Shown here: piece by piece, positions 4,296 through 43,018 of the stretch
How positions within the stretch are numbered: the first letter of the stretch is position 1
How the letters are laid out: each line of letters opens with the position of its first letter
Sequence record: MN642089.1
Source: Klebsiella phage N1M2
Strand: one strand, 5' to 3'
Length of the DNA stretch: 64,000 nt
Made by a program: the position numbers and the translations under genes
Notes under the pieces: model-generated
Told to the model about the DNA's origin: nothing
The model's input: only the letters and a program-made list of their open reading frames with translations
The model's database searches: none

Positions 4296-5521
4296 CTTGT
4301 CTTTCCTAGATCAACAGCGTGAATCTTAAACATCCACCCTTTCATTAATGTTCCTGGATCACCTGGGTTAATGCTGTCGTTTGGAACAACGTTACCATCA
4401 AGAGTACCAGTAGTTAACATGGGGTATTTGTTATAGACACGCAAGTCGTGAGACCAGAGACGTTGACCAATACCATACGTCCTGATGTATGGAACTGGGA
4501 ACATCCCATTATCCACTACTAAAGGATGTTGGAACTTCTCTTCAGTGTGGAGCACAGTCGGGTAATGGAAGGTAGTCATAGGACTGACATCCACACCCAC
4601 ACTAGGGTTATCGATTAACACGATGAAACTATTATCAGCCAAGAGAGCTTGCTGCTTGTAAGTATCGAACTTAGTGAGGTTCGTTAACTTAGGTGTTCTG
4701 GTGTAGTGTTGATAGTTGAAGTAATGATGGATAACATCAAAAGCTGTGAGATCAATAGAGATACGATCATCAGCAACTTTATAAACAATATCTGTATCAA
4801 CCATCAGCTGTCCATTAACGACAACATAAATGGTTTTAGCATTCAAGTCATCTTTTACTTTTACTTCCCAACGTTTATTAGAAGTAGTCGAGACTTCTTG
4901 AAGAATATCCTTAGTAATCGGGATCGTTTTAACTTTACCGATTTTCTGGAAATTGAGAGCGCCAATGCGCAGGTCTTTACGATTCTTAATATAATCAAGA
5001 CCAGCGCCTAATAAATAGATTCCATCTTTACGTCCAACCGACCGAGTAAAGACACCATTAACTTGGAACAATGCATGATCATTAATATGATTGTAATCGA
5101 TATTTTGATACCTGTATTGTTCTATTCTGATATCAGGTGCACCATCAGAAGTGAGTAGGTCCTGTCTATCATTTGCGAGGTTTATGTTAGCCGGATAGTG
5201 GAAGTAACCATAGGTGAAAATACGTTCCAACTTAACATAACGGTACTTATCACCAGGCATAACGTCAGATAAAGTCAAGACATCATTTACTTTGGTATCT
5301 AACCATTTCTGAATAGTTAATGTTGGATTTTTGGCGAAGTCAAGTCGGTAATCTTGAAGAGTTATACAAACCTTATCTTTGAACATACTGTCATCAATGA
5401 CAATATAAAGAAGGTCAAACAACTTCTCAAGATCAGCGACGCTATAGTCAGCAATATCAACTATGTGATAGCCTGGTCTATAGTCTCTGTATCGCCCCAC
5501 TGAGTATTTGTATGTATACAT
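4292..5521 (-). CDS. hypothetical protein (409 aa), first gene of spanin operon
   Basis: Stop overlaps i-spanin start (ATGA); no recognisable catalytic motif. Confidence 0.55.
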   Translation of the reverse strand: MYTYKYSVGRYRDYRPGYHIVDIADYSVADLEKLFDLLYIVIDDSMFKDKVCITLQDYRLDFAKNPTLTIQKWLDTKVNDVLTLSDVMPGDKYRYVKLERIFTYGYFHYPANINLANDRQDLLTSDGAPDIRIEQYRYQNIDYNHINDHALFQVNGVFTRSVGRKDGIYLLGAGLDYIKNRKDLRIGALNFQKIGKVKTIPITKDILQEVSTTSNKRWEVKVKDDLNAKTIYVVVNGQLMVDTDIVYKVADDRISIDLTAFDVIHHYFNYQHYTRTPKLTNLTKFDTYKQQALLADNSFIVLIDNPSVGVDVSPMTTFHYPTVLHTEEKFQHPLVVDNGMFPVPYIRTYGIGQRLWSHDLRVYNKYPMLTTGTLDGNVVPNDSINPGDPGTLMKGWMFKIHAVDLGKTR

Positions 5522-13100: not shown

Positions 13101-13923
13101 GAACGTTATCTCTTATAATGAACACCAAACTAATACTGATGGATCATGGGCTGGTTTGGAATATCGTTATGGTCTTAACATCTGTTATCCACATGTCGAA
13201 ATTCTTGACTTCCCAGAGGAAGGACCTAGAAATATGGAGATATGCTGGTTTACAGGAATACAGATTAAGACAACAGGTAACGCCACCACTCAACGTACAT
13301 TCTTAAGGGTGCGTAATAACCAAACCATCGAGGCTACTTCAGCCACTGGTAATGGTCAGTCCTTTAACGAATACTACTGGCAAGTCCAGGCCAACCCACA
13401 GTGGGGATGGTTGCAAGGTGTTCCTGCTGCTGAGTCTGGTGGTGCGATGGACTTGATGGTTCCATGGAAAGGTCCTGAGGGAAGTCTCCAAGCAGACCAA
13501 GACAAGTACGTTATGCTTGGCGCTACTTACGTTGAGGGTAACTGGTCTGTATTTATCAATGCCGATATTAATGTAACCTTTAATGGATACTCGATGCCGG
13601 CTAAGATGACCAACTGGGATTTGAGAGATCTTACCGATGTCTATCGTGATTCAACATTTTACCTTTACTGTGTCTCTGATGGTTCTGCTGCTCGGTATGA
13701 TATATCCAAGGTTTTAAGACACCATAACCCATCAGCTATTCTGGTTGGTGTCATTACGACAGATTCCTTTGGTATTGTTACCATTCAGCGTTATCAAAGT
13801 TTCACCATTAGTGGTTATCCTTTAACCCGTCAGCGTGATACAGGTGTGCCAGTATCTTCTGGAGCTATCACGGAACAAGGTACATATAAGTTCCTGAAAC
13901 GTAGCGAGTTGTATACAGGTTAA
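10159..13923 (+). CDS. tail fibre protein (1254 aa)
   Basis: Paralogous N-terminus 'VDWETQINNKP...HSHD', 'IPPPITGSFEGLGG'; followed by hairpin terminator. Confidence 0.65.
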   Translation: MKDLDIVDIDYSAKKAEFKKEDKVDLAKISPPWIVPEEGPMYGDNTLRVIRGGLDLVRGKDWVPVTDVPKLSELTGKPVYLYIELKDHVLATGGEVSVVYQRVGKPVISVKTLLDMLQQMVIEGKPVDWETQINNKPDTYYPAWHSHDIQNPNELVGFGGLVELFSMFTYRAKADGGKVRELLEKLQKEVWDKLNYTQKLLWGVIMDHSRNYQNPHKLKPADIDLGNVGNFATATPQQDADAMRDDLYSTPAGLKRLTEELAPDTEDFIVQSELPFGYFGSGIYIPPPITGSFEGLGGDYENSAFCQEGNGWTVGLLRAFDGRVKNLYYIYKTDVRNRDEKLVPWLHTYVQYQHPTITADGLEPNYVINGSNNDIIMLGVSDNPTEQLKADEKFYISLSNSTFDPNSHEFKETNFAELRGPEDLVPAAGYTTIAHVGSWVYLIVSYNTKEGFTQPDGVGVTNYQQWFYRAKYSDINNKDVDKVVFQQVDVTYDNVSRVRKSGKAMAMIDYQANAAGEITRGLVNYIPSVTTAESHRRRQFIIVNNPNNPALSRVRILAISYATKTTQNSAYAGWANLIVDYEWNGETNTWTLSPHWEFGTWSVETGSIISPTKSWLEWCNGNNESRYHSQSFAINAGSYIPGFGFVSIGSRQTGTPPLMAISTIYNRDGDPQRDYEYMGLPPNWTTDSGLYNGWWNQMVLRSPFGVSGFPRFYADLYRLDGKIRQTPIEIFMAETEDQDTASFYRITEGGEGDNYDKRDSLQSKYIQMPIYGRKTNSNFGKVSGTHYDVATVNRPKKKDVKSRETGVFGYLRRGIIKNPGAPYMFSRKTYDDGSIKEIVQENDGSIIVNLNLNFTMEPLSKVIYAKPIAQEKLRIPKAIWEGVIKTALETHYSKTIDMGVSFYVCQDPGTNADQPYCMFSIIYHITDNPRLTRSIIGRFNWDVESVGADGIRVMKMGAIDYPFSGSNYAKQRLVPPSQNPENVISYNEHQTNTDGSWAGLEYRYGLNICYPHVEILDFPEEGPRNMEICWFTGIQIKTTGNATTQRTFLRVRNNQTIEATSATGNGQSFNEYYWQVQANPQWGWLQGVPAAESGGAMDLMVPWKGPEGSLQADQDKYVMLGATYVEGNWSVFINADINVTFNGYSMPAKMTNWDLRDLTDVYRDSTFYLYCVSDGSAARYDISKVLRHHNPSAILVGVITTDSFGIVTIQRYQSFTISGYPLTRQRDTGVPVSSGAITEQGTYKFLKRSELYTG

Positions 13924-19914: not shown

Positions 19915-20910
19915 TTATTGCGGTCCGGCAGAAGTATCACCACCAGATTTAACACCACCGTGTCTGTGACCAAGATAGGAAATCCCACCAATAGTCCAGT
20001 CACCTTCAGATGTACCAGTACCACCTTTCTGACTAAATCCACCATCAAGAGATTGATTACCTTTAATGGTGTAATTACCAGTCTGTTCGTAGTTACCGGT
20101 TTGCTTAGTGTTACCTTTGTGTGTGATGTCGCCTTCTATCATAATTGTTGGAGACTTCCAAGTAGTTGTCTGTGTTTCAATTGCGATAGAGTTATCAGCT
20201 TTGATCTTCAAATCTTTACACTGAAGATCTACATTGTTTTTGCCCTTTAACAACATACTGTCTTCACAGGACATTGTGATATTCTTTTTCTCAATATTCA
20301 AGAATGATTTTTCTTCATTGATAAATGAGAAGGCATGATCCATAGAGTTAATAGAAAGAATATTATTCTCACCATCCACTATACCAAATTGACCATTCCC
20401 TGTATCGAGAGAAAGACAATATGAAGTAGGTTCCCCATTACCTTGACCAGTAACTAACTGGATCATTTTTTTATGGGAAGATATCATGAATATGTAGTAG
20501 TTATCCGGTGTTACTGGGGTATTCGCATCAACATTGGGAGAAGAGGAAAATGCATAAATAACAGTTTCAAGTCTGAGGGTTCCGTCCATACCGAAATAAG
20601 TCCAACGGTATTTAGACTGACCCACAAACTTATAGACAACTACCTTACTACCATTTCTAACATCGGGTGCTGTCACACGGTTCGTATTCAAAGCCAACCA
20701 TGTCGCAGGAACTGTGTTAGAACTTAAAGTTGTACTGGAGCTGGTATCTCCTGTAGGTGTTCTGGTTGTTACGGTTTGTGTTTGGGTTTGGGTCGTGACC
20801 TCACCATCACCCTCAGGAAACATTGATGGGATATAAACTTGTATCTCATCAGTATTAGTTTCCTTATCCATAGCAACAATGCCGACACCCAGGCATTCTA
20901 ATACATTCAT
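19915..20910 (-). CDS. baseplate central spike (P2 gpV / phi92 gp138-like)
   Basis: 331 aa; Thr/Gln-rich linker then Gly-rich beta-helix-type repeats ending 'GGISYLGHRHGGVKSGG' (HxH apex motif as in iron-binding phage spikes). Confidence 0.5.
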   Translation of the reverse strand: MNVLECLGVGIVAMDKETNTDEIQVYIPSMFPEGDGEVTTQTQTQTVTTRTPTGDTSSSTTLSSNTVPATWLALNTNRVTAPDVRNGSKVVVYKFVGQSKYRWTYFGMDGTLRLETVIYAFSSSPNVDANTPVTPDNYYIFMISSHKKMIQLVTGQGNGEPTSYCLSLDTGNGQFGIVDGENNILSINSMDHAFSFINEEKSFLNIEKKNITMSCEDSMLLKGKNNVDLQCKDLKIKADNSIAIETQTTTWKSPTIMIEGDITHKGNTKQTGNYEQTGNYTIKGNQSLDGGFSQKGGTGTSEGDWTIGGISYLGHRHGGVKSGGDTSAGPQ

Positions 20911-24018: not shown

Positions 24019-24058
24019 CCCTCAGACTTCCTAGGTGAAAGCCTAAGAGGTCTGAGGG
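24019..24058 (+). terminator. hairpin terminator
   Basis: 'ccctcagac'...'gtctgaggg'-ttt. Confidence 0.6.
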
Positions 24059-24149
24059 TTTGGTAATATGATTTATTGTTTGTTTCAATACTTTGCTAAC
24101 ACACAGCGTATACGCCGTCTAACAACGGTTGTATAACTTTATTACTGTC

Positions 24150-24225
24150 ACATATTTTCAGGCAGATATTATCATTATGTAAAAGTAAAACTTTTATTCT
24201 TTTTAACAACTTATAGGTAATAAAA
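24150..24225 (+). promoter_or_regulatory. conserved promoter/5'-leader module (copy 1 of 3)
   Basis: 'gcagatattatca..tgtaaaag..ttttt..aacttatag' ~60 nt upstream of ATG; TATTAT -10-like hexamer. Confidence 0.45.
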
Positions 24226-25035
24226 ATGAACAGTAAGACCCAGACCAACCTAATGAGTATCTTTTTATTACTCATGTCACTTGTATGGATCTCCACTGTT
24301 TCGACTGCATATGCATCCGTCGGAGCTAATCCAAACGAGTACACTACCAAAATAGTGATGAAACGTTTTGATGGTTTGAAGGAGCATCTCTATGAAGCTT
24401 CTAAAGTAAGTGGGATGGATATGGCTGACTTAGTCGCTATATCGAGTATCGAATCCACCTTACGTACCAATACCCGTTCAAAGTTTTCAAGTGCATCCGG
24501 TGTAATGCAATACACCCGTTCAACTTGGAAACAAGATCGTAAGTTGTATGCTAAACAACTAGGTCTTTCAGAATCGGCTAATGTTTTAAATCCAAGAGCT
24601 AATCTCTTGATCGGTGCCACATCGCTAAACAACCTTAAGCAATTCCTCATAGAAAAATCACACTTGACCGACAAAACTGTCCGTGTAGGTGATCTTTATA
24701 TGAGCCATTTGGTTGGGGCCAACGGTGCACTAGCTGTTATTAACTCTAACAGCAACAAACCAATCAATAAGATCTTAAGAGTTACTAAAGGTAATTATTC
24801 CATGTACTACAAGCCGAATGGTCAGATTCGTACTGCCCGTGAATTCCGCTCTTATATGGATTACCTTGTAAAACGTGAACGCAGCTTCTATGAAAAAGAA
24901 GTAAGACGTTTCCAGATTGCCAAAGTAACTGCCCCTATTATTCGTCCGATCGAAGAAAACTTGTGGGGTAAGCAGTTAGCCATAGCTATCGCAAACACCA
25001 CTAAGTATGTCGGATATAACGATTTAAATAGTTAA
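24226..25035 (+). CDS. secreted lytic transglycosylase (SLT domain)
   Basis: Signal peptide 'MNSKTQTNLMSIFLLLMSLVWISTVSTAYA'; SLT core 'AISSIESTLR...ASGVMQYTRSTW'. Confidence 0.7.
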   Translation: MNSKTQTNLMSIFLLLMSLVWISTVSTAYASVGANPNEYTTKIVMKRFDGLKEHLYEASKVSGMDMADLVAISSIESTLRTNTRSKFSSASGVMQYTRSTWKQDRKLYAKQLGLSESANVLNPRANLLIGATSLNNLKQFLIEKSHLTDKTVRVGDLYMSHLVGANGALAVINSNSNKPINKILRVTKGNYSMYYKPNGQIRTAREFRSYMDYLVKRERSFYEKEVRRFQIAKVTAPIIRPIEENLWGKQLAIAIANTTKYVGYNDLNS

Positions 25036-25369: not shown

Positions 25370-25403
25370 CTAACTAGGACTGGTTAACACCAGTCCTAGT
25401 TAA
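25370..25403 (+). terminator. hairpin terminator
   Basis: 14-bp perfect stem 'ttaactaggactgg'/'ccagtcctagttaa' + T-rich tail. Confidence 0.7.
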
Positions 25404-31593: not shown

Positions 31594-31675
31594 ACTTTGT
31601 TGTCTATTTGCAAAGTCTGAAAATACCGAGCCTAATTGCTCCGTTAAAATCACGCTTATTAAGGAAATATTTTAA

Positions 31676-32989
31676 ATGTCTCGTACTTCCGATATTCGTC
31701 ACTACATGGTTTCTCAGTACCCGTATATGTCTTATAGTCAAATGCTTGGTCAGGTTAAACGCATCCAAGACGAATTCAAAGTAGAAATAAATAAGGGTAA
31801 TGAAGTTGGTGACAGTTACACCTATGGTCTTATTGGCGACTCTTATGGTCGCGTTATGTTTAAGATCAAATCCAATACTGAATTTAGTGCTTTAGATGCG
31901 GATGCCAATTTCACGGCCTCTAATCTGAATGCATTCATCATCGAGTTGGAAGCACTTGTCAAACTAAATAAAGAAGGTCACTTCTATGACATGATCATTC
32001 CGCGTACTGGGGATATCATGTATGCTTTTGGTAACAACCTGGAAGACATCGCTAACTTGAACGCAATGCTTTATTCTTACCTGACTCGCCGCCACGCTAA
32101 CCGCGGTCGTAAGGGTTCGGATAACGATATTAAATTTAAGATGAAGTTCACTGAAGGGGCCATCGGTGAATTCTGGGTGAGAAACATTGAGTTCACAGAC
32201 AAGATGGTTTCTTTCAAAGTAGGTTGTGAGTTTGAAATTATCCATAATGCATTTAAGAGCATGTATGATTTTGTAATTGTCACGCCTGCTCTGGGTCAGG
32301 CAGTTAATCCGATCAAAGCCCTGAAAGAAAAGGAAGTTAAACCTAAGAAGGAAAAGAAAGCTATCAATACTTTTGACGAACTAGTCAATGATATTGCTAA
32401 CGAACCTAAATTATGTATTTCTAAATTCTTAGCAGTGAAGATGCTAGAAACTGGAATTAGAAGTTTAGGTAAAACTGAAGGATTAGTTAATGTAGGAAAC
32501 GTTAGTCATGCTGGGATTCAATTTGAATTGAGAAAATACGGTCAAGAAGGACCGATGATGCTCTATGTGGAAGTTGATGAGAATCTAGTATTTAGTGCTT
32601 CCATTATTAGTTTCAAACGCATCAGCAATGACATGGATAAATCAGTTACAGCAAAACAGATCACTGAGCAATCGATTATTCGTCATGACTTCATGGAATG
32701 GCTGGAGGAGTACGTTGGTGATGATTACATCCACAATGTATGTAAATGGCTGGCTGGTAAGGAAAGCGGTGTAGCTGGTGCCGTTAATAGCGAATATCAA
32801 TGGGACCAGTACACCTATGGTGACTTCAGTATTTTGATTGAAGTATCTCCTAGTGGTGGGTTTGACGTCACTGTTAAATGTGATGACACTACTGTTGCCT
32901 CCCCGTTCCCGTTTGAGATGGAACATGTGGTGGAAACATTAAAGCCTCGTGGTTTCTTAACTCGTCTACTTTCTGTATTCTCCTGGTAA
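31676..32989 (+). CDS. hypothetical protein (437 aa), codon-optimised
   Basis: RBS 'ttaaggaaatattttaaATG'; flanked by strong terminators. Confidence 0.55.
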   Translation: MSRTSDIRHYMVSQYPYMSYSQMLGQVKRIQDEFKVEINKGNEVGDSYTYGLIGDSYGRVMFKIKSNTEFSALDADANFTASNLNAFIIELEALVKLNKEGHFYDMIIPRTGDIMYAFGNNLEDIANLNAMLYSYLTRRHANRGRKGSDNDIKFKMKFTEGAIGEFWVRNIEFTDKMVSFKVGCEFEIIHNAFKSMYDFVIVTPALGQAVNPIKALKEKEVKPKKEKKAINTFDELVNDIANEPKLCISKFLAVKMLETGIRSLGKTEGLVNVGNVSHAGIQFELRKYGQEGPMMLYVEVDENLVFSASIISFKRISNDMDKSVTAKQITEQSIIRHDFMEWLEEYVGDDYIHNVCKWLAGKESGVAGAVNSEYQWDQYTYGDFSILIEVSPSGGFDVTVKCDDTTVASPFPFEMEHVVETLKPRGFLTRLLSVFSW

Positions 32990-32996
32990 TATAATT

Positions 32997-33024
32997 CCTA
33001 ACACTTCCGCAAGGGAGTGTTAGG
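32997..33024 (+). terminator. hairpin terminator with GCAA tetraloop
   Basis: 'cctaacacttcc'-gcaa-'gggagtgttagg' + long T-run. Confidence 0.7.
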
Positions 33025-33039
33025 GTTATTATCTTATTT

Positions 33040-33131
33040 TTTATTTTGCATTTGCATATAAGTTTAAGCAGATATTATCACAGTGTAGAAGTTAGAACAA
33101 TTTTTCATACACTTATAGAAGGAATTAAAAT
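33040..33131 (+). promoter_or_regulatory. conserved promoter/5'-leader module (copy 2 of 3)
   Basis: TTTGCA-16-TATTAT then 'cagtgtagaag...aacaatttttca..acttatagaagga'. Confidence 0.45.
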
Positions 33132-33878
33132 ATGTTTAATCAAGCAACTATCGAACAACTGGGTTACTACGTTTACTCCCTGACTGATCCACGTACCAAT
33201 AAAGTTTTCTACATTGGTAAAGGTTGCGGACAACGTGTTTATATGCACGTTCAGGACGCAGTTAAATCCCCACGTAAATCTGACAAGCTGGACACCATTC
33301 GTGATATTCACGCTGCTGGTTTAGAAGTTGAACATTGTATTATCCGTCACGGTATGTCTGAAGAAGCCGCTTTTGAAGTAGAAGCCGCCATGATCGACAT
33401 GCATCTAGATCTTACTAACATTGTTAAAGGTCATGGTGTTTATCGTGGACCTCAGTCTGCAGAAGAATTAGATATTCGTTATGCGGCTGAAGAAGCCGAC
33501 TTTGGTGATCTGAAAGTCATGATGATTAAGATCAACAATACTTATGGTAAAATGGATACTTGGGACGCTACTCGTTTTGCATGGACTGTTAATCCTAATG
33601 TTGCCATGTGTGCTGATGTAGTTGTTGGTGTAGCCAATGGTATTATCCGTGGCGTGTACATTCCAGAAGGTTGGGTTAAATCCATTATGGAAGAAGAACC
33701 TGAACTGTATGCTTACCACAATCTTACTCAGAAAGACCATAAGAACCGTAAAGTACTGGTTGGTCATCCAGCCCCTGCAGAACTGCAAGAACGTCTGTTA
33801 AACAAACAGATCCCAGCTGAATACTCCATGAAGGGTACTCAAATATCTTTCCGTTACAACTTTGTAAAAAGGAAGTAA
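33132..33878 (+). CDS. GIY-YIG family endonuclease (homing-endonuclease-like) with C-terminal domain of unknown function
   Basis: 'GYYVYSLTDPRTNKVFYIGKGCGQRVYMH' GIY-YIG core with downstream conserved Arg/Glu. Confidence 0.7.
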   Translation: MFNQATIEQLGYYVYSLTDPRTNKVFYIGKGCGQRVYMHVQDAVKSPRKSDKLDTIRDIHAAGLEVEHCIIRHGMSEEAAFEVEAAMIDMHLDLTNIVKGHGVYRGPQSAEELDIRYAAEEADFGDLKVMMIKINNTYGKMDTWDATRFAWTVNPNVAMCADVVVGVANGIIRGVYIPEGWVKSIMEEEPELYAYHNLTQKDHKNRKVLVGHPAPAELQERLLNKQIPAEYSMKGTQISFRYNFVKRK

Positions 33879-38543: not shown

Positions 38544-38566
38544 TCCTTTGTTAAAGGAGACTACCA

Positions 38567-38706
38567 TGCCAAGTGTATCTGAAAAACAAGCTAAGTTTAT
38601 GCGTGCAGTTGCTCATTCCCCTGAGTTTGCCAAGAAAGTTGGTGTTCCTCAATCTGTGGGTAAAGAGTTTAATGACGCTGACAAAGCAAAAGAAAAGAAA
38701 AAGTAA
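38567..38706 (+). CDS. small basic protein (46 aa), not in ORF track
   Basis: 'aaaggagactaccATG' strong RBS; 'MPSVSEKQAKFMRAVAHSPEFAKKVGVPQSVGKEF'; hairpin terminator follows. Confidence 0.35.
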
Positions 38707-38744: not shown

Positions 38745-38765
38745 TAAACTATAGAGGGTATCAAC

Positions 38766-42587: not shown

Positions 42588-42615
42588 CCTCTTACTCCTT
42601 AACGGGAGTAAGAGG
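42588..42615 (+). terminator. hairpin terminator
   Basis: 'cctcttactcc'-ttaac-'gggagtaagagg' + T-rich. Confidence 0.65.
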
Positions 42616-42624
42616 TTCATATTC

Positions 42625-42703
42625 ATTTGTATTTATTTTTGGACTTATATTATCTAAGTGTATAAGGAAACAATTTTTAATTAACTTGTAGAAGGAGTAA
42701 TTT
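42625..42703 (+). promoter_or_regulatory. conserved promoter/5'-leader module (copy 3 of 3)
   Basis: 'acttatattatctaagtgtataagg aaacaatttttaattaacttgtagaaggag'. Confidence 0.45.
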
Positions 42704-43018
42704 ATGTCTGGTGATTTCTTACCTACTAAAATGTTTTCCAAACTGGCTGGAGAAGAACAGAAGTTGGGTAGCCATTATCATAATCAAAACAATGTAAGTC
42801 ACCAGCATCGCTTACTGACGATGACTCGTGAAGAACGTATCACCGACCTGGAAGATAAACTGGAAAAAGCCATGAACTATGACTTTGACCTTGTTGAAAC
42901 CATTCAGGAAAAAATCGATCTTTATCAAGGCATGACCGACGAGGAGTACAAGTCTTATATCCGTATCAAGATGTTGTATACTCGTAACGCTATCAAACCA
43001 ATCATCCCAACTAAATAA
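42704..43018 (+). CDS. hypothetical protein (104 aa)
   Basis: Preceded by conserved promoter/leader module and AGGAG RBS. Confidence 0.45.
   Translation: MSGDFLPTKMFSKLAGEEQKLGSHYHNQNNVSHQHRLLTMTREERITDLEDKLEKAMNYDFDLVETIQEKIDLYQGMTDEEYKSYIRIKMLYTRNAIKPIIPTK

Follow-up and report, generated by a model that had tools for sequence, protein, structure and literature searches.

The 64-kb stretch of DNA analysed here (the window) carries three promoter-leader modules. They most likely contain the early promoters of a jumbo phage in the phiKZ-like family Chimalliviridae, and every promoter is joined to an A/U-rich, unstructured leader that would favour translation. The modules most likely represent the early-promoter class expected of a chimallivirus, with a signal known from phiKZ-type phages, in a lineage for which it has had no written description so far, and they call for no new mechanism. 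The features concerned are as follows, with relatives named where a feature is kept in them.

24019..24058, + strand: terminator-like stable hairpin at the end of the preceding unit, 5' of promoter copy 1 (-29.3 kcal/mol, z -5.71, a stability reached by 0 of 200 shuffles; kept in Serratia phages Sureiya and Yubaba)
24147..24185, + strand: probable early promoter, copy 1, about -32 to +7, with the core ATATTAT at 24166-24172 and the predicted start at G24179 (exact pattern match; 40.7 bits)
24179..24225, + strand: predicted 47-nt 5' leader of the SLT transcript, its start placed by ATATTAT-(6N)-G, with a putative ribosome-binding-site element, AACTTATAGG, at 24208-24217 (unstructured, z +0.84)
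24226..25035, + strand: first gene of unit 1, lytic transglycosylase with an SLT domain, 269 aa (PF01464, E 1.8e-6; phrog_4067 transglycosylase, E 1.3e-43)
32996..33025, + strand: terminator-like stable hairpin 5' of promoter copy 2, a 13-bp stem followed by a T-rich tail (-21.4 kcal/mol, z -6.84)
33053..33091, + strand: probable early promoter, copy 2, with the core at 33072-33078 and the predicted start at G33085 (exact match; 42.0 bits)
33085..33131, + strand: predicted 47-nt leader with a putative ribosome-binding-site element, ACTTATAGAAGGA, at 33111-33123 (unstructured, z +0.96; 76% identity to the 42704 leader)
33132..33878, + strand: first gene of unit 2, GIY-YIG nuclease, 248 aa (PF22945, E 4.9e-16)
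42588..42615, + strand: terminator-like stable hairpin 5' of promoter copy 3, with a 12-bp stem (-22.9 kcal/mol, z -7.03)
42628..42666, + strand: probable early promoter, copy 3, with the core at 42647-42653 and the predicted start at G42660 (exact match; 46.2 bits, the best in the window)
42660..42703, + strand: predicted 44-nt leader with TTAACTTGTAGAAGGAG at 42681-42697, resembling the T7 gene 10 epsilon enhancer plus Shine-Dalgarno sequence (unstructured, z +1.03; aligned to the T7 leader TTAACTTTAAGAAGGAG)
42704..43018, + strand: first gene of unit 3, encoding a protein of 104 aa (75-78% aa identity to its Yubaba and Sureiya orthologues, with a variable N-terminus)

A search of the window with the pattern ATATTATCNNNNTGTANAAG (15 specified bases) returned exact matches at 24166, 33072 and 42647, all on the + strand, which confirms the three modules at the places given in a preliminary description of this DNA. 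No matches beyond these three appeared in the window when 2 mismatches were allowed, and shuffled sequences searched with up to 2 mismatches gave a mean of 0.39 matches, with none of 100 shuffles containing three or more. The 8-mer ATATTATC alone was not significant in the window (6 found vs 3.8 expected). The preliminary description regarded the modules as near-identical and as built from the same ordered elements at the same spacing. The first two elements, 'cAGATATTATC' and 'TGTAnAAG', were indeed found at identical spacing in all three copies, but the third and fourth, 'aaCAATTTTT' and 'ACTTrTAGAAGGA', are good only in the copies at 33132 and 42704 and partial in that at 24226, where just 'TTCTTTTT' and 'ACTTATAGGTAA' were seen. 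The pairwise identity among the copies was 68-71% for the promoter and 62-76% for the leader; "near-identical" is thus too strong, although the recurrence itself is non-random. Both of the gene calls made in that description, SLT (PF01464) and GIY-YIG (PF22945), were right.

Homologues of the GIY-YIG nuclease occur in 22 phage records, for the most part of jumbo phages, while the 104-aa protein (42704..43018) had no match among Pfam or PHROG families. A lytic transglycosylase, for which the Yubaba annotation reads endolysin, would not be expected among early genes, an observation that speaks against the early class. Rfam and tRNA scans of the window gave no matches.

The window is about 80% identical to, and syntenic with, the Serratia phages vB_SmaM-Sureiya and vB_SmaM-Yubaba (both about 256 kb), which belong to the genus Petsuvirus in the family Chimalliviridae (phiKZ-like, nucleus-forming jumbo phages). 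In comparison with Sureiya, the three intergenic modules showed 88-90% identity, as against 61-83% for the flanking coding sequence. Promoter copy 1 differs by one base in Sureiya and Yubaba, copy 3 shows no base changes in these two phages, and copy 2 is kept in both and also in Pantoea phage Survivor, including the -30 element TTTTGCAT. Although Survivor is syntenic, it is more distantly related (51% identity between its GIY-YIG protein and that of the window), and the core was found at all three orthologous positions of its genome. Core and flanks of copy 1 are kept there 5' of the Survivor endolysin, and the region from -35 to +1 is kept for copy 3. The Survivor alignment as a whole showed conservation of the segment from about -32 to +7, not of the middle of the leader, and in part of the ribosome-binding-site region. 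Serratia phage Moabite, which belongs to another genus, has the ATATTACT variant of the core. We also scanned IMG/VR with an exact 20-nt pattern and rescored the matches with a weight matrix. The pattern matches were rejected as a set of relatives, being mostly single chance matches on unrelated AT-rich contigs; after rescoring, only four were likely relatives, and two of these lie on contigs of about 260 kb.

The genome-wide distribution of the motif was assessed in Sureiya, the closest complete genome and about 80% identical, the phage of the window being represented by 64 kb. A 46-nt weight matrix, trained iteratively on Sureiya, identified 27 sites in that genome scoring 29-48 bits, as compared with 13 bits for the next best site and 0-1 sites per shuffled genome at a threshold of 10. 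The cores of all 27 sites are intergenic, in a genome of 264 annotated coding sequences in which intergenic DNA makes up 6.1%, and every site is co-oriented with its downstream gene, on the strand that bears 223 of the 264 genes. The start codons lie 9-120 nt past the predicted start, with a median predicted leader of 47 nt. The motif is therefore strongly intergenic, which is the genome-wide enrichment that the preliminary description had proposed to check, and the 27 intergenic, co-oriented copies bear out its view that promoter-leader modules head co-regulated transcription units. An enrichment analysis of 7-mers in the 119 upstream intergenic regions of Sureiya, which was not biased toward the motif, recovered the same core, with TATTATC in 19 regions vs 2.75 expected; it also recovered pieces of hairpins and a TATAGAG/TAGAGAG ribosome-binding-site class. 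When applied to the window, the Sureiya-trained matrix found only the three sites, at 41-46 bits (40.7, 42.0 and 46.2). A weak match of 11.9 bits was seen at 20481 of the window, within coding sequence.

For phiKZ, 28-32 early promoters have been reported (PMC8244752, PMC13282480), a number close to the 27 copies of Sureiya. One Sureiya copy lies 25 nt 5' of a homologue of PHIKZ071 (E 3e-35 to 7OGP chain C) and another heads an operon with a homologue of PHIKZ055 (E 6e-33), both being homologues of non-virion polymerase subunits. Since these copies precede non-virion polymerase genes, the polymerase that reads them must already be present at injection. The Sureiya record assigns RNA polymerase beta subunits to genes 00950 and 00960, which lie amid structural genes; they gave only a sub-threshold Pfam match to Rpb2 and no match to a solved structure, and the matrix scan placed no motif copy near these putative virion polymerase genes. 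Behind the copy at 13483 lies SUREIYA_00130 (638 aa), in a position like that of PHIKZ054, beside the PHIKZ055 homologue. As a candidate chimallin, this protein showed no detectable similarity to solved chimallins, Pfam families, phiKZ gp54 or the Moabite shell protein.

An information profile of the 27 Sureiya sites, numbered from the first A of the core, resolved the anatomy of the promoter. From 5' to 3', it consists of an invariant A at -16 (-29 from the predicted start) inside T-S-Y-A; TTyARRYAk at -9 to -1 (-23 to -14 from the predicted start); ATATTATY at 1-8 (-13 to -6), which is invariant or nearly so in the 27 Sureiya and the three window sites; rTG at 12-14, with G14 in 26 of the 27 Sureiya sites and in all three of the window; and A at 16. 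Scant information lies past position 20, and the leader beyond about +7 carries little. The conserved block, about -32 to +7, is ATATTAT-(6N)-G. With G14 taken as +1, the sequence predicts starts at 24179, 33085 and 42660, and leaders of 47, 47 and 44 nt. In two of the Survivor copies, position 14 is A, still a purine, so the exact start base is uncertain.

This architecture agrees with that of early promoters in phiKZ-like jumbo phages. The mapped early consensus of AR9 is AAATATATATTAT-(6N)-G+1, and the starts of phiKZ and phiR1-37 also lie 6 nt 3' of their consensus (PMC5312081); the early promoters of phiKZ and 201phi2-1 have conserved -10, -20 and -30 blocks (PMC11512511, PMC8244752). According to a review, jumbo phages that encode RNA polymerases each have a highly conserved AT-rich motif of about 10 nt centred near -10, which can be found bioinformatically upstream of early operons and has proved to be an early promoter wherever tested (PMC7598289). 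In the first 50 kb of phiKZ, we found seven TATATTAC sites, all on the + strand and intergenic, with 'aaACAG' on the 5' side and 6N then G on the 3' side; one of them lies upstream of the shell gene PHIKZ054. The phiKZ pattern ATATTAC-(6N)-G and the window pattern ATATTAT-(6N)-G thus share a core at -13 to -7 and a conserved purine, the predicted start, 6 nt further on, and 'CAG' directly 5' of the core is common to phiKZ and the window/Sureiya motif. The modules also share with the type of phiKZ, 201phi2-1, AR9 and phiR1-37 a complement of about 27-40 intergenic copies per genome, placed before operons of small genes and before non-virion polymerase genes. Two differences were seen: the core in the window ends in T followed by C or T, whereas phiKZ has C instead, and the -30 element is T-S-Y-A in the window group, in contrast to TTCAAA in phiKZ. 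Our literature search found no published description of promoters for this phage group, and the paper on Sureiya and Yubaba is silent on them.

The part of the module 3' of the promoter was examined by folding each leader together with the first 20 nt beyond the ATG, against shuffled controls, with the predicted start as the 5' end. All three leaders were less stable than their shuffles (z +0.84 to +1.03). The leader pairs of Sureiya had a median identity of 56%, as compared with 50% for shuffled leaders, and the Sureiya orthologues of the 33132 and 42704 leaders were the most similar pair in that genome (78%). The shared leader of about 45 nt noted in the preliminary description is thus an impression due to one pair, that of 33132 and 42704, which are alike (76%), but leaders are not conserved genome-wide. 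What does recur across leaders is the 5' end GUAUAAG, contiguous with the promoter, and 'TATAG-purine', located 13-18 nt before the ATG, the G of which opens the purine run of the Shine-Dalgarno sequence. In Sureiya, TATAG within 32 nt of the ATG was found at 10 of 27 promoter-proximal genes vs 14 of 237 others (Fisher 1.8e-5). TATAG-purine is also present at internal genes of early operons that have no promoter of their own (Sureiya 151134, 152986, 156991 and 158883; window 38766, 43048 and 45040), suggesting that it is a part of the translation initiation region and not of the promoter. We had considered TATAG as a second promoter, read by the non-virion polymerase (compare the TATG of phiKZ), an idea prompted by a copy directly 3' of a hairpin (window 38745-38765); its anchoring relative to the ATG and the purine run led us to take it as a part of the ribosome binding site. 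AACA-(6N)-TA/G, the late motif of AR9, did not fit the leader.

By analogy with phage T7, we take the leader to be a ribosome binding site of the enhancer type, A/U-rich and free of structure. Epsilon of T7, UUAACUUUA, located directly 5' of a strong Shine-Dalgarno sequence, is employed to enhance translation (PMC9590205). The T7 gene 10 leader segment TTAACTTTAAGAAGGAG (NC_001604) and TTAACTTGTAGAAGGAG of the window (42681-42697) are identical at 15 of 17 positions, and an AAnAATTTT run precedes the element in both, as seen in the longer stretches AATAATTTTGTTTAACTTTAAGAAGGAG of T7 (NC_001604) and AACAATTTTTAATTAACTTGTAGAAGGAG of the 42704 leader. In comparison with epsilon itself, 7 of 9 bases match (TTAACTTGT, 42681-42689), followed by AGAAGGAG, and the other copies match less well. 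The leaders of T7 gene 10 and of the window are both A/U-rich and unstructured, and both stand before phage genes of enterobacterial hosts that are, or in the window would be, highly expressed, although the phages and their polymerases are unrelated. Only the copies at 42704 and 33132 match T7 well; other early leaders retain only 'TATAG-purine' or 'TAGAGAG'. In the 33132 leader, ATAGAAGGAAT is retained in Survivor, whereas the middle of the leader is not.

A different function for the shared leader, and one that the preliminary description had favoured in the form of a common RegA/gp32-type RNA operator, is that of a binding site for a phage translational repressor or endoribonuclease (T4 RegA, gp32 or RegB-like) acting in early shut-off. 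The enrichment of TATAG-purine beside the Shine-Dalgarno sequence of early-promoter genes given above would fit such a site, as would the clustering of the element in early operons and the place of TATAGAG and TAGAGAG among the most over-represented intergenic 7-mers; AR9 early 5' UTRs, moreover, contain a predicted motif of unexplained function (PMC5312081). We nevertheless consider an operator improbable, as the leaders have no conserved structure, their identity across the genome hardly exceeds that of shuffled leaders, information is low past +7, the middle of the leader is not conserved in Survivor, and no candidate repressor emerged from the analysis. RegA sites overlie the AUG. The conserved piece of the window leaders, however, lies 5' of the Shine-Dalgarno sequence, and the copies have no common sequence between the Shine-Dalgarno sequence and the AUG or in the first codons, so a start-codon overlap of the RegA type was not found. 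Like T4 RegA operators, the window element is an A/U-rich, unstructured sequence near the ribosome binding site of many early mRNAs; unlike them, it is absent from most early leaders and is not kept as a block across genera. Its likeness to a known translation enhancer is the simpler account. A related idea, which we regard as unlikely, is that the 'AACUUAUAG-purine' box at the Shine-Dalgarno sequence, together with the conserved 5' end GUAUAAG, might be a class mark of early mRNAs, recognised by a phage factor that times early protein synthesis, and so might do more than bind ribosomes strongly; this factor could be a RegA/RegB-like repressor or RNase, or a protein associated with ribosomes or with export, whose targets would be transcripts on their way out of the early infection vesicle.

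As to the polymerase that reads the modules, the -35-like hexamers reported in the preliminary description are present: TTTGCA at 33051-33056 and TTTGTA at 42626-42631, each 16 nt 5' of TATTAT, with CTGTCA in the remaining copy. If TATTAT is taken as a -10 and TTTGCA/TTTGTA as a -35 at 16-nt spacing, the modules would be early promoters for host sigma-70. A sigma-70 consensus scan did list 24145-24172 (CTGTCA/TATTAT) and 33051-33078 (TTTGCA/TATTAT), with 9 of 12 matches each; in the -10 hexamer the A at position 2 and the T at position 6 are invariant, and two of the three copies would pass for sigma-70 promoters, having TATTAT with a TTGCA-like hexamer 16 nt 5' of it. However, 9 of 12 is the minimum of the scan, the copy that the scan did not list fails it, and sigma-70-like sites are rarer in the region than in shuffles (37 vs 50.9). 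Conservation extends to the spacer block, to rTG in the start region and to A at -29, which is invariant, and none of these is a sigma-70 feature. Furthermore, phiKZ and AR9 have early promoters that match the motif, and in those phages early transcription is insensitive to rifampicin and independent of protein synthesis (PMC7598289, PMC5312081, PMC13282480), and in chimalliviruses the injected DNA shares a vesicle with the virion polymerase (PMC13282480). Host sigma-70 is therefore a very unlikely reader, and the -10/-35 interpretation calls for revision; on this view the "-35-like" TTTGCA/TTTGTA is the -30 element of the phage promoter.

Chimalliviruses transcribe their genes independently of the host: a multisubunit RNA polymerase packaged in the virion reads the early genes, and a non-virion polymerase, made early, reads the rest (PMC7598289, PMC13282480). 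We favour the virion polymerase as the reader of the three modules because of the conserved spacer and start region, the membership in Chimalliviridae and the match to the AR9/phiKZ pattern. In the mechanism we propose, the virion-packaged multisubunit polymerase would enter the cell together with the DNA and recognise a signal of about 39 bp, composed of the -30 element (T-S-Y-A), the -20 block (TTyARRYAk) and the -10-like core (ATATTAT). It would initiate at the conserved purine 6 nt past the core (G24179, G33085 and G42660) and transcribe the operon up to a strong hairpin, while a like hairpin 5' of each promoter would insulate it from the preceding unit. The resulting 44-47 nt leaders, predicted to lack stable structure, would end in a T7 gene 10 epsilon-like 'AACTTATAG' fused to the Shine-Dalgarno sequence, and this end probably acts as a strong translation initiation region common to genes of the early region, rather than as a repressor site. 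We infer the polymerase, the start sites and the timing from homology of the motif; likewise predicted are the exact start nucleotide, the ending of transcripts at the hairpins and the part that the leader would play in translation.

The comparison yields a usable early-promoter consensus, tttcAGrcAG-ATATTATY-nnrTG, for Petsuvirus-like jumbo phages of Serratia, Pantoea and related hosts. By this consensus, Sureiya would have about 27 early transcription units and the window three, with starts placed to about one nucleotide. The consensus could serve in annotation, in the choice of early genes (anti-defence, host takeover) and in phage engineering. It also adds a data point for conservation of the ATATTA-(6N)-purine core of virion-polymerase promoters across Bacillus phage AR9, Pseudomonas phage phiKZ and the chimalliviruses of enterobacteria.

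A very stable hairpin was found 5' of each of the three modules (z -5.7 to -7.0), a feature absent from the preliminary description. The distance from hairpin to module is about 21-27 nt for copies 2 and 3, and 88 nt for copy 1. A hairpin scan 5' of the 27 Sureiya promoters at -12 kcal/mol detected hairpins at 16 of 27, which was not separated from random windows (24 of 60), and our claim accordingly covers the three window hairpins only. The layout recalls the PeSLs of T4-type phages, which are likewise repeated units, placed among small early genes, of a stem-loop terminator and a strong early promoter (PMC2839356). The host polymerase reads PeSL promoters, which are of sigma-70-like type, whereas we do not interpret the window promoters in this way, and PeSLs mark junctions of insertion, deletion or replacement between close relatives, which were not seen at the window modules. 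That the modules are mobile terminator-promoter cassettes of the PeSL type, the repetition of which reflects and drives recombinational shuffling of early genes, is hardly credible, even though PeSLs have the same composite layout of a hairpin and then an early promoter 25-90 nt on (PMC2839356), the two most similar leaders of the genome are 9.5 kb apart and phiKZ has two near-identical promoter-leader cassettes before different genes, since the flanking genes are orthologous at all three sites in the window, Sureiya, Yubaba and Survivor, and no insertion or deletion bounded by the cassettes was seen in these four phages. A mosaic junction or gene swap behind copy 3, an impression gained from the DNA alignment, was rejected, as the proteins are orthologous, with 75-88% identity and a variable N-terminus.

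Repetition of promoter-leader modules, which the preliminary description had noticed in the window, is also seen in the type phage phiKZ, since two of its early cassettes, one ahead of PHIKZ006 and the other ahead of PHIKZ010.1, have nearly the same sequence throughout promoter and leader. The features concerned here and in the two following paragraphs are:

phiKZ (L131) 2635-2720, early promoter-leader cassette ahead of PHIKZ006
phiKZ (L131) 4486-4570, early promoter-leader cassette ahead of PHIKZ010.1
Window 33132-33878, GIY-YIG nuclease gene
L129 6406-7170, homologue of the GIY-YIG nuclease gene
Window 25371-25402, perfect hairpin of 14-15 bp with a terminator score on both strands

Homologues of the GIY-YIG nuclease were found in many chimalliviruses. 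Since these lie at non-syntenic locations and the OBP homologue is annotated as a homing nuclease, the comparison suggests that the gene encodes a mobile, free-standing homing endonuclease, with its own early promoter in the window. In Moabite, a Serratia phage of another genus, the homologue is found near the terminase gene.

The N-terminus of the SLT-domain protein (24226-25035), which lies behind motif copy 1, is hydrophobic (MNSKTQTNLMSIFLLLMSLVWIST...), and in the Serratia phage Yubaba the protein carries an endolysin annotation. An early-type promoter ahead of this gene represents an unexpected timing for a lysis enzyme. The short SLT unit is separated from the ligase gene cluster by the hairpin at 25371-25402. 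The interval of approximately 90 nt between a hairpin and promoter copy 1 (24059-24146) is 90-96% conserved among the window, Yubaba and the related phage Sureiya, and the flanking genes are less conserved.

Internal genes of both early operons have ribosome binding sites of one stereotyped form, 'TTAAT(A)TAGAGAGAAA-N4-5-ATG', and TATAGAG and TAGAGAG rank among the most enriched intergenic 7-mers of Sureiya. This site and the remaining features are as follows:

Window 36609, 38766, 43048, 44045 and 45040, starts with the ribosome binding site in the 20-25 nt upstream
Window 31612-31667, intergenic element AAAGTCTGAA..CCGAGCCTAATTGCTCCG..CACGCTTATTAAGGAAA, 5' of the 437-aa ORF at 31676
Window 20481-20500, weak motif copy ATATCATGAATATGTAGTAG within a coding region, 11.9 bits against the Sureiya-trained matrix
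Window ~38566-38706, small ORF of ~46 aa, positional orthologue of Sureiya gene 01760

Because the ribosome binding site at 38745-38765 stands directly 3' of a hairpin, its sequence context leaves room for a second role, in which the element may double as a promoter for the non-virion polymerase. The intergenic element at 31612-31667, from which the early-promoter motif is absent, is kept in Sureiya and, beyond the genus, in the Pantoea phage Survivor; it may act as an RNA element or as a promoter of a non-early class. The weak motif copy at 20481-20500 is conserved in Sureiya (at 175935) and is probably non-functional. The small ORF, which falls under the 60-aa threshold of the ORF listing, occupies an apparent 222-nt gap in the window.
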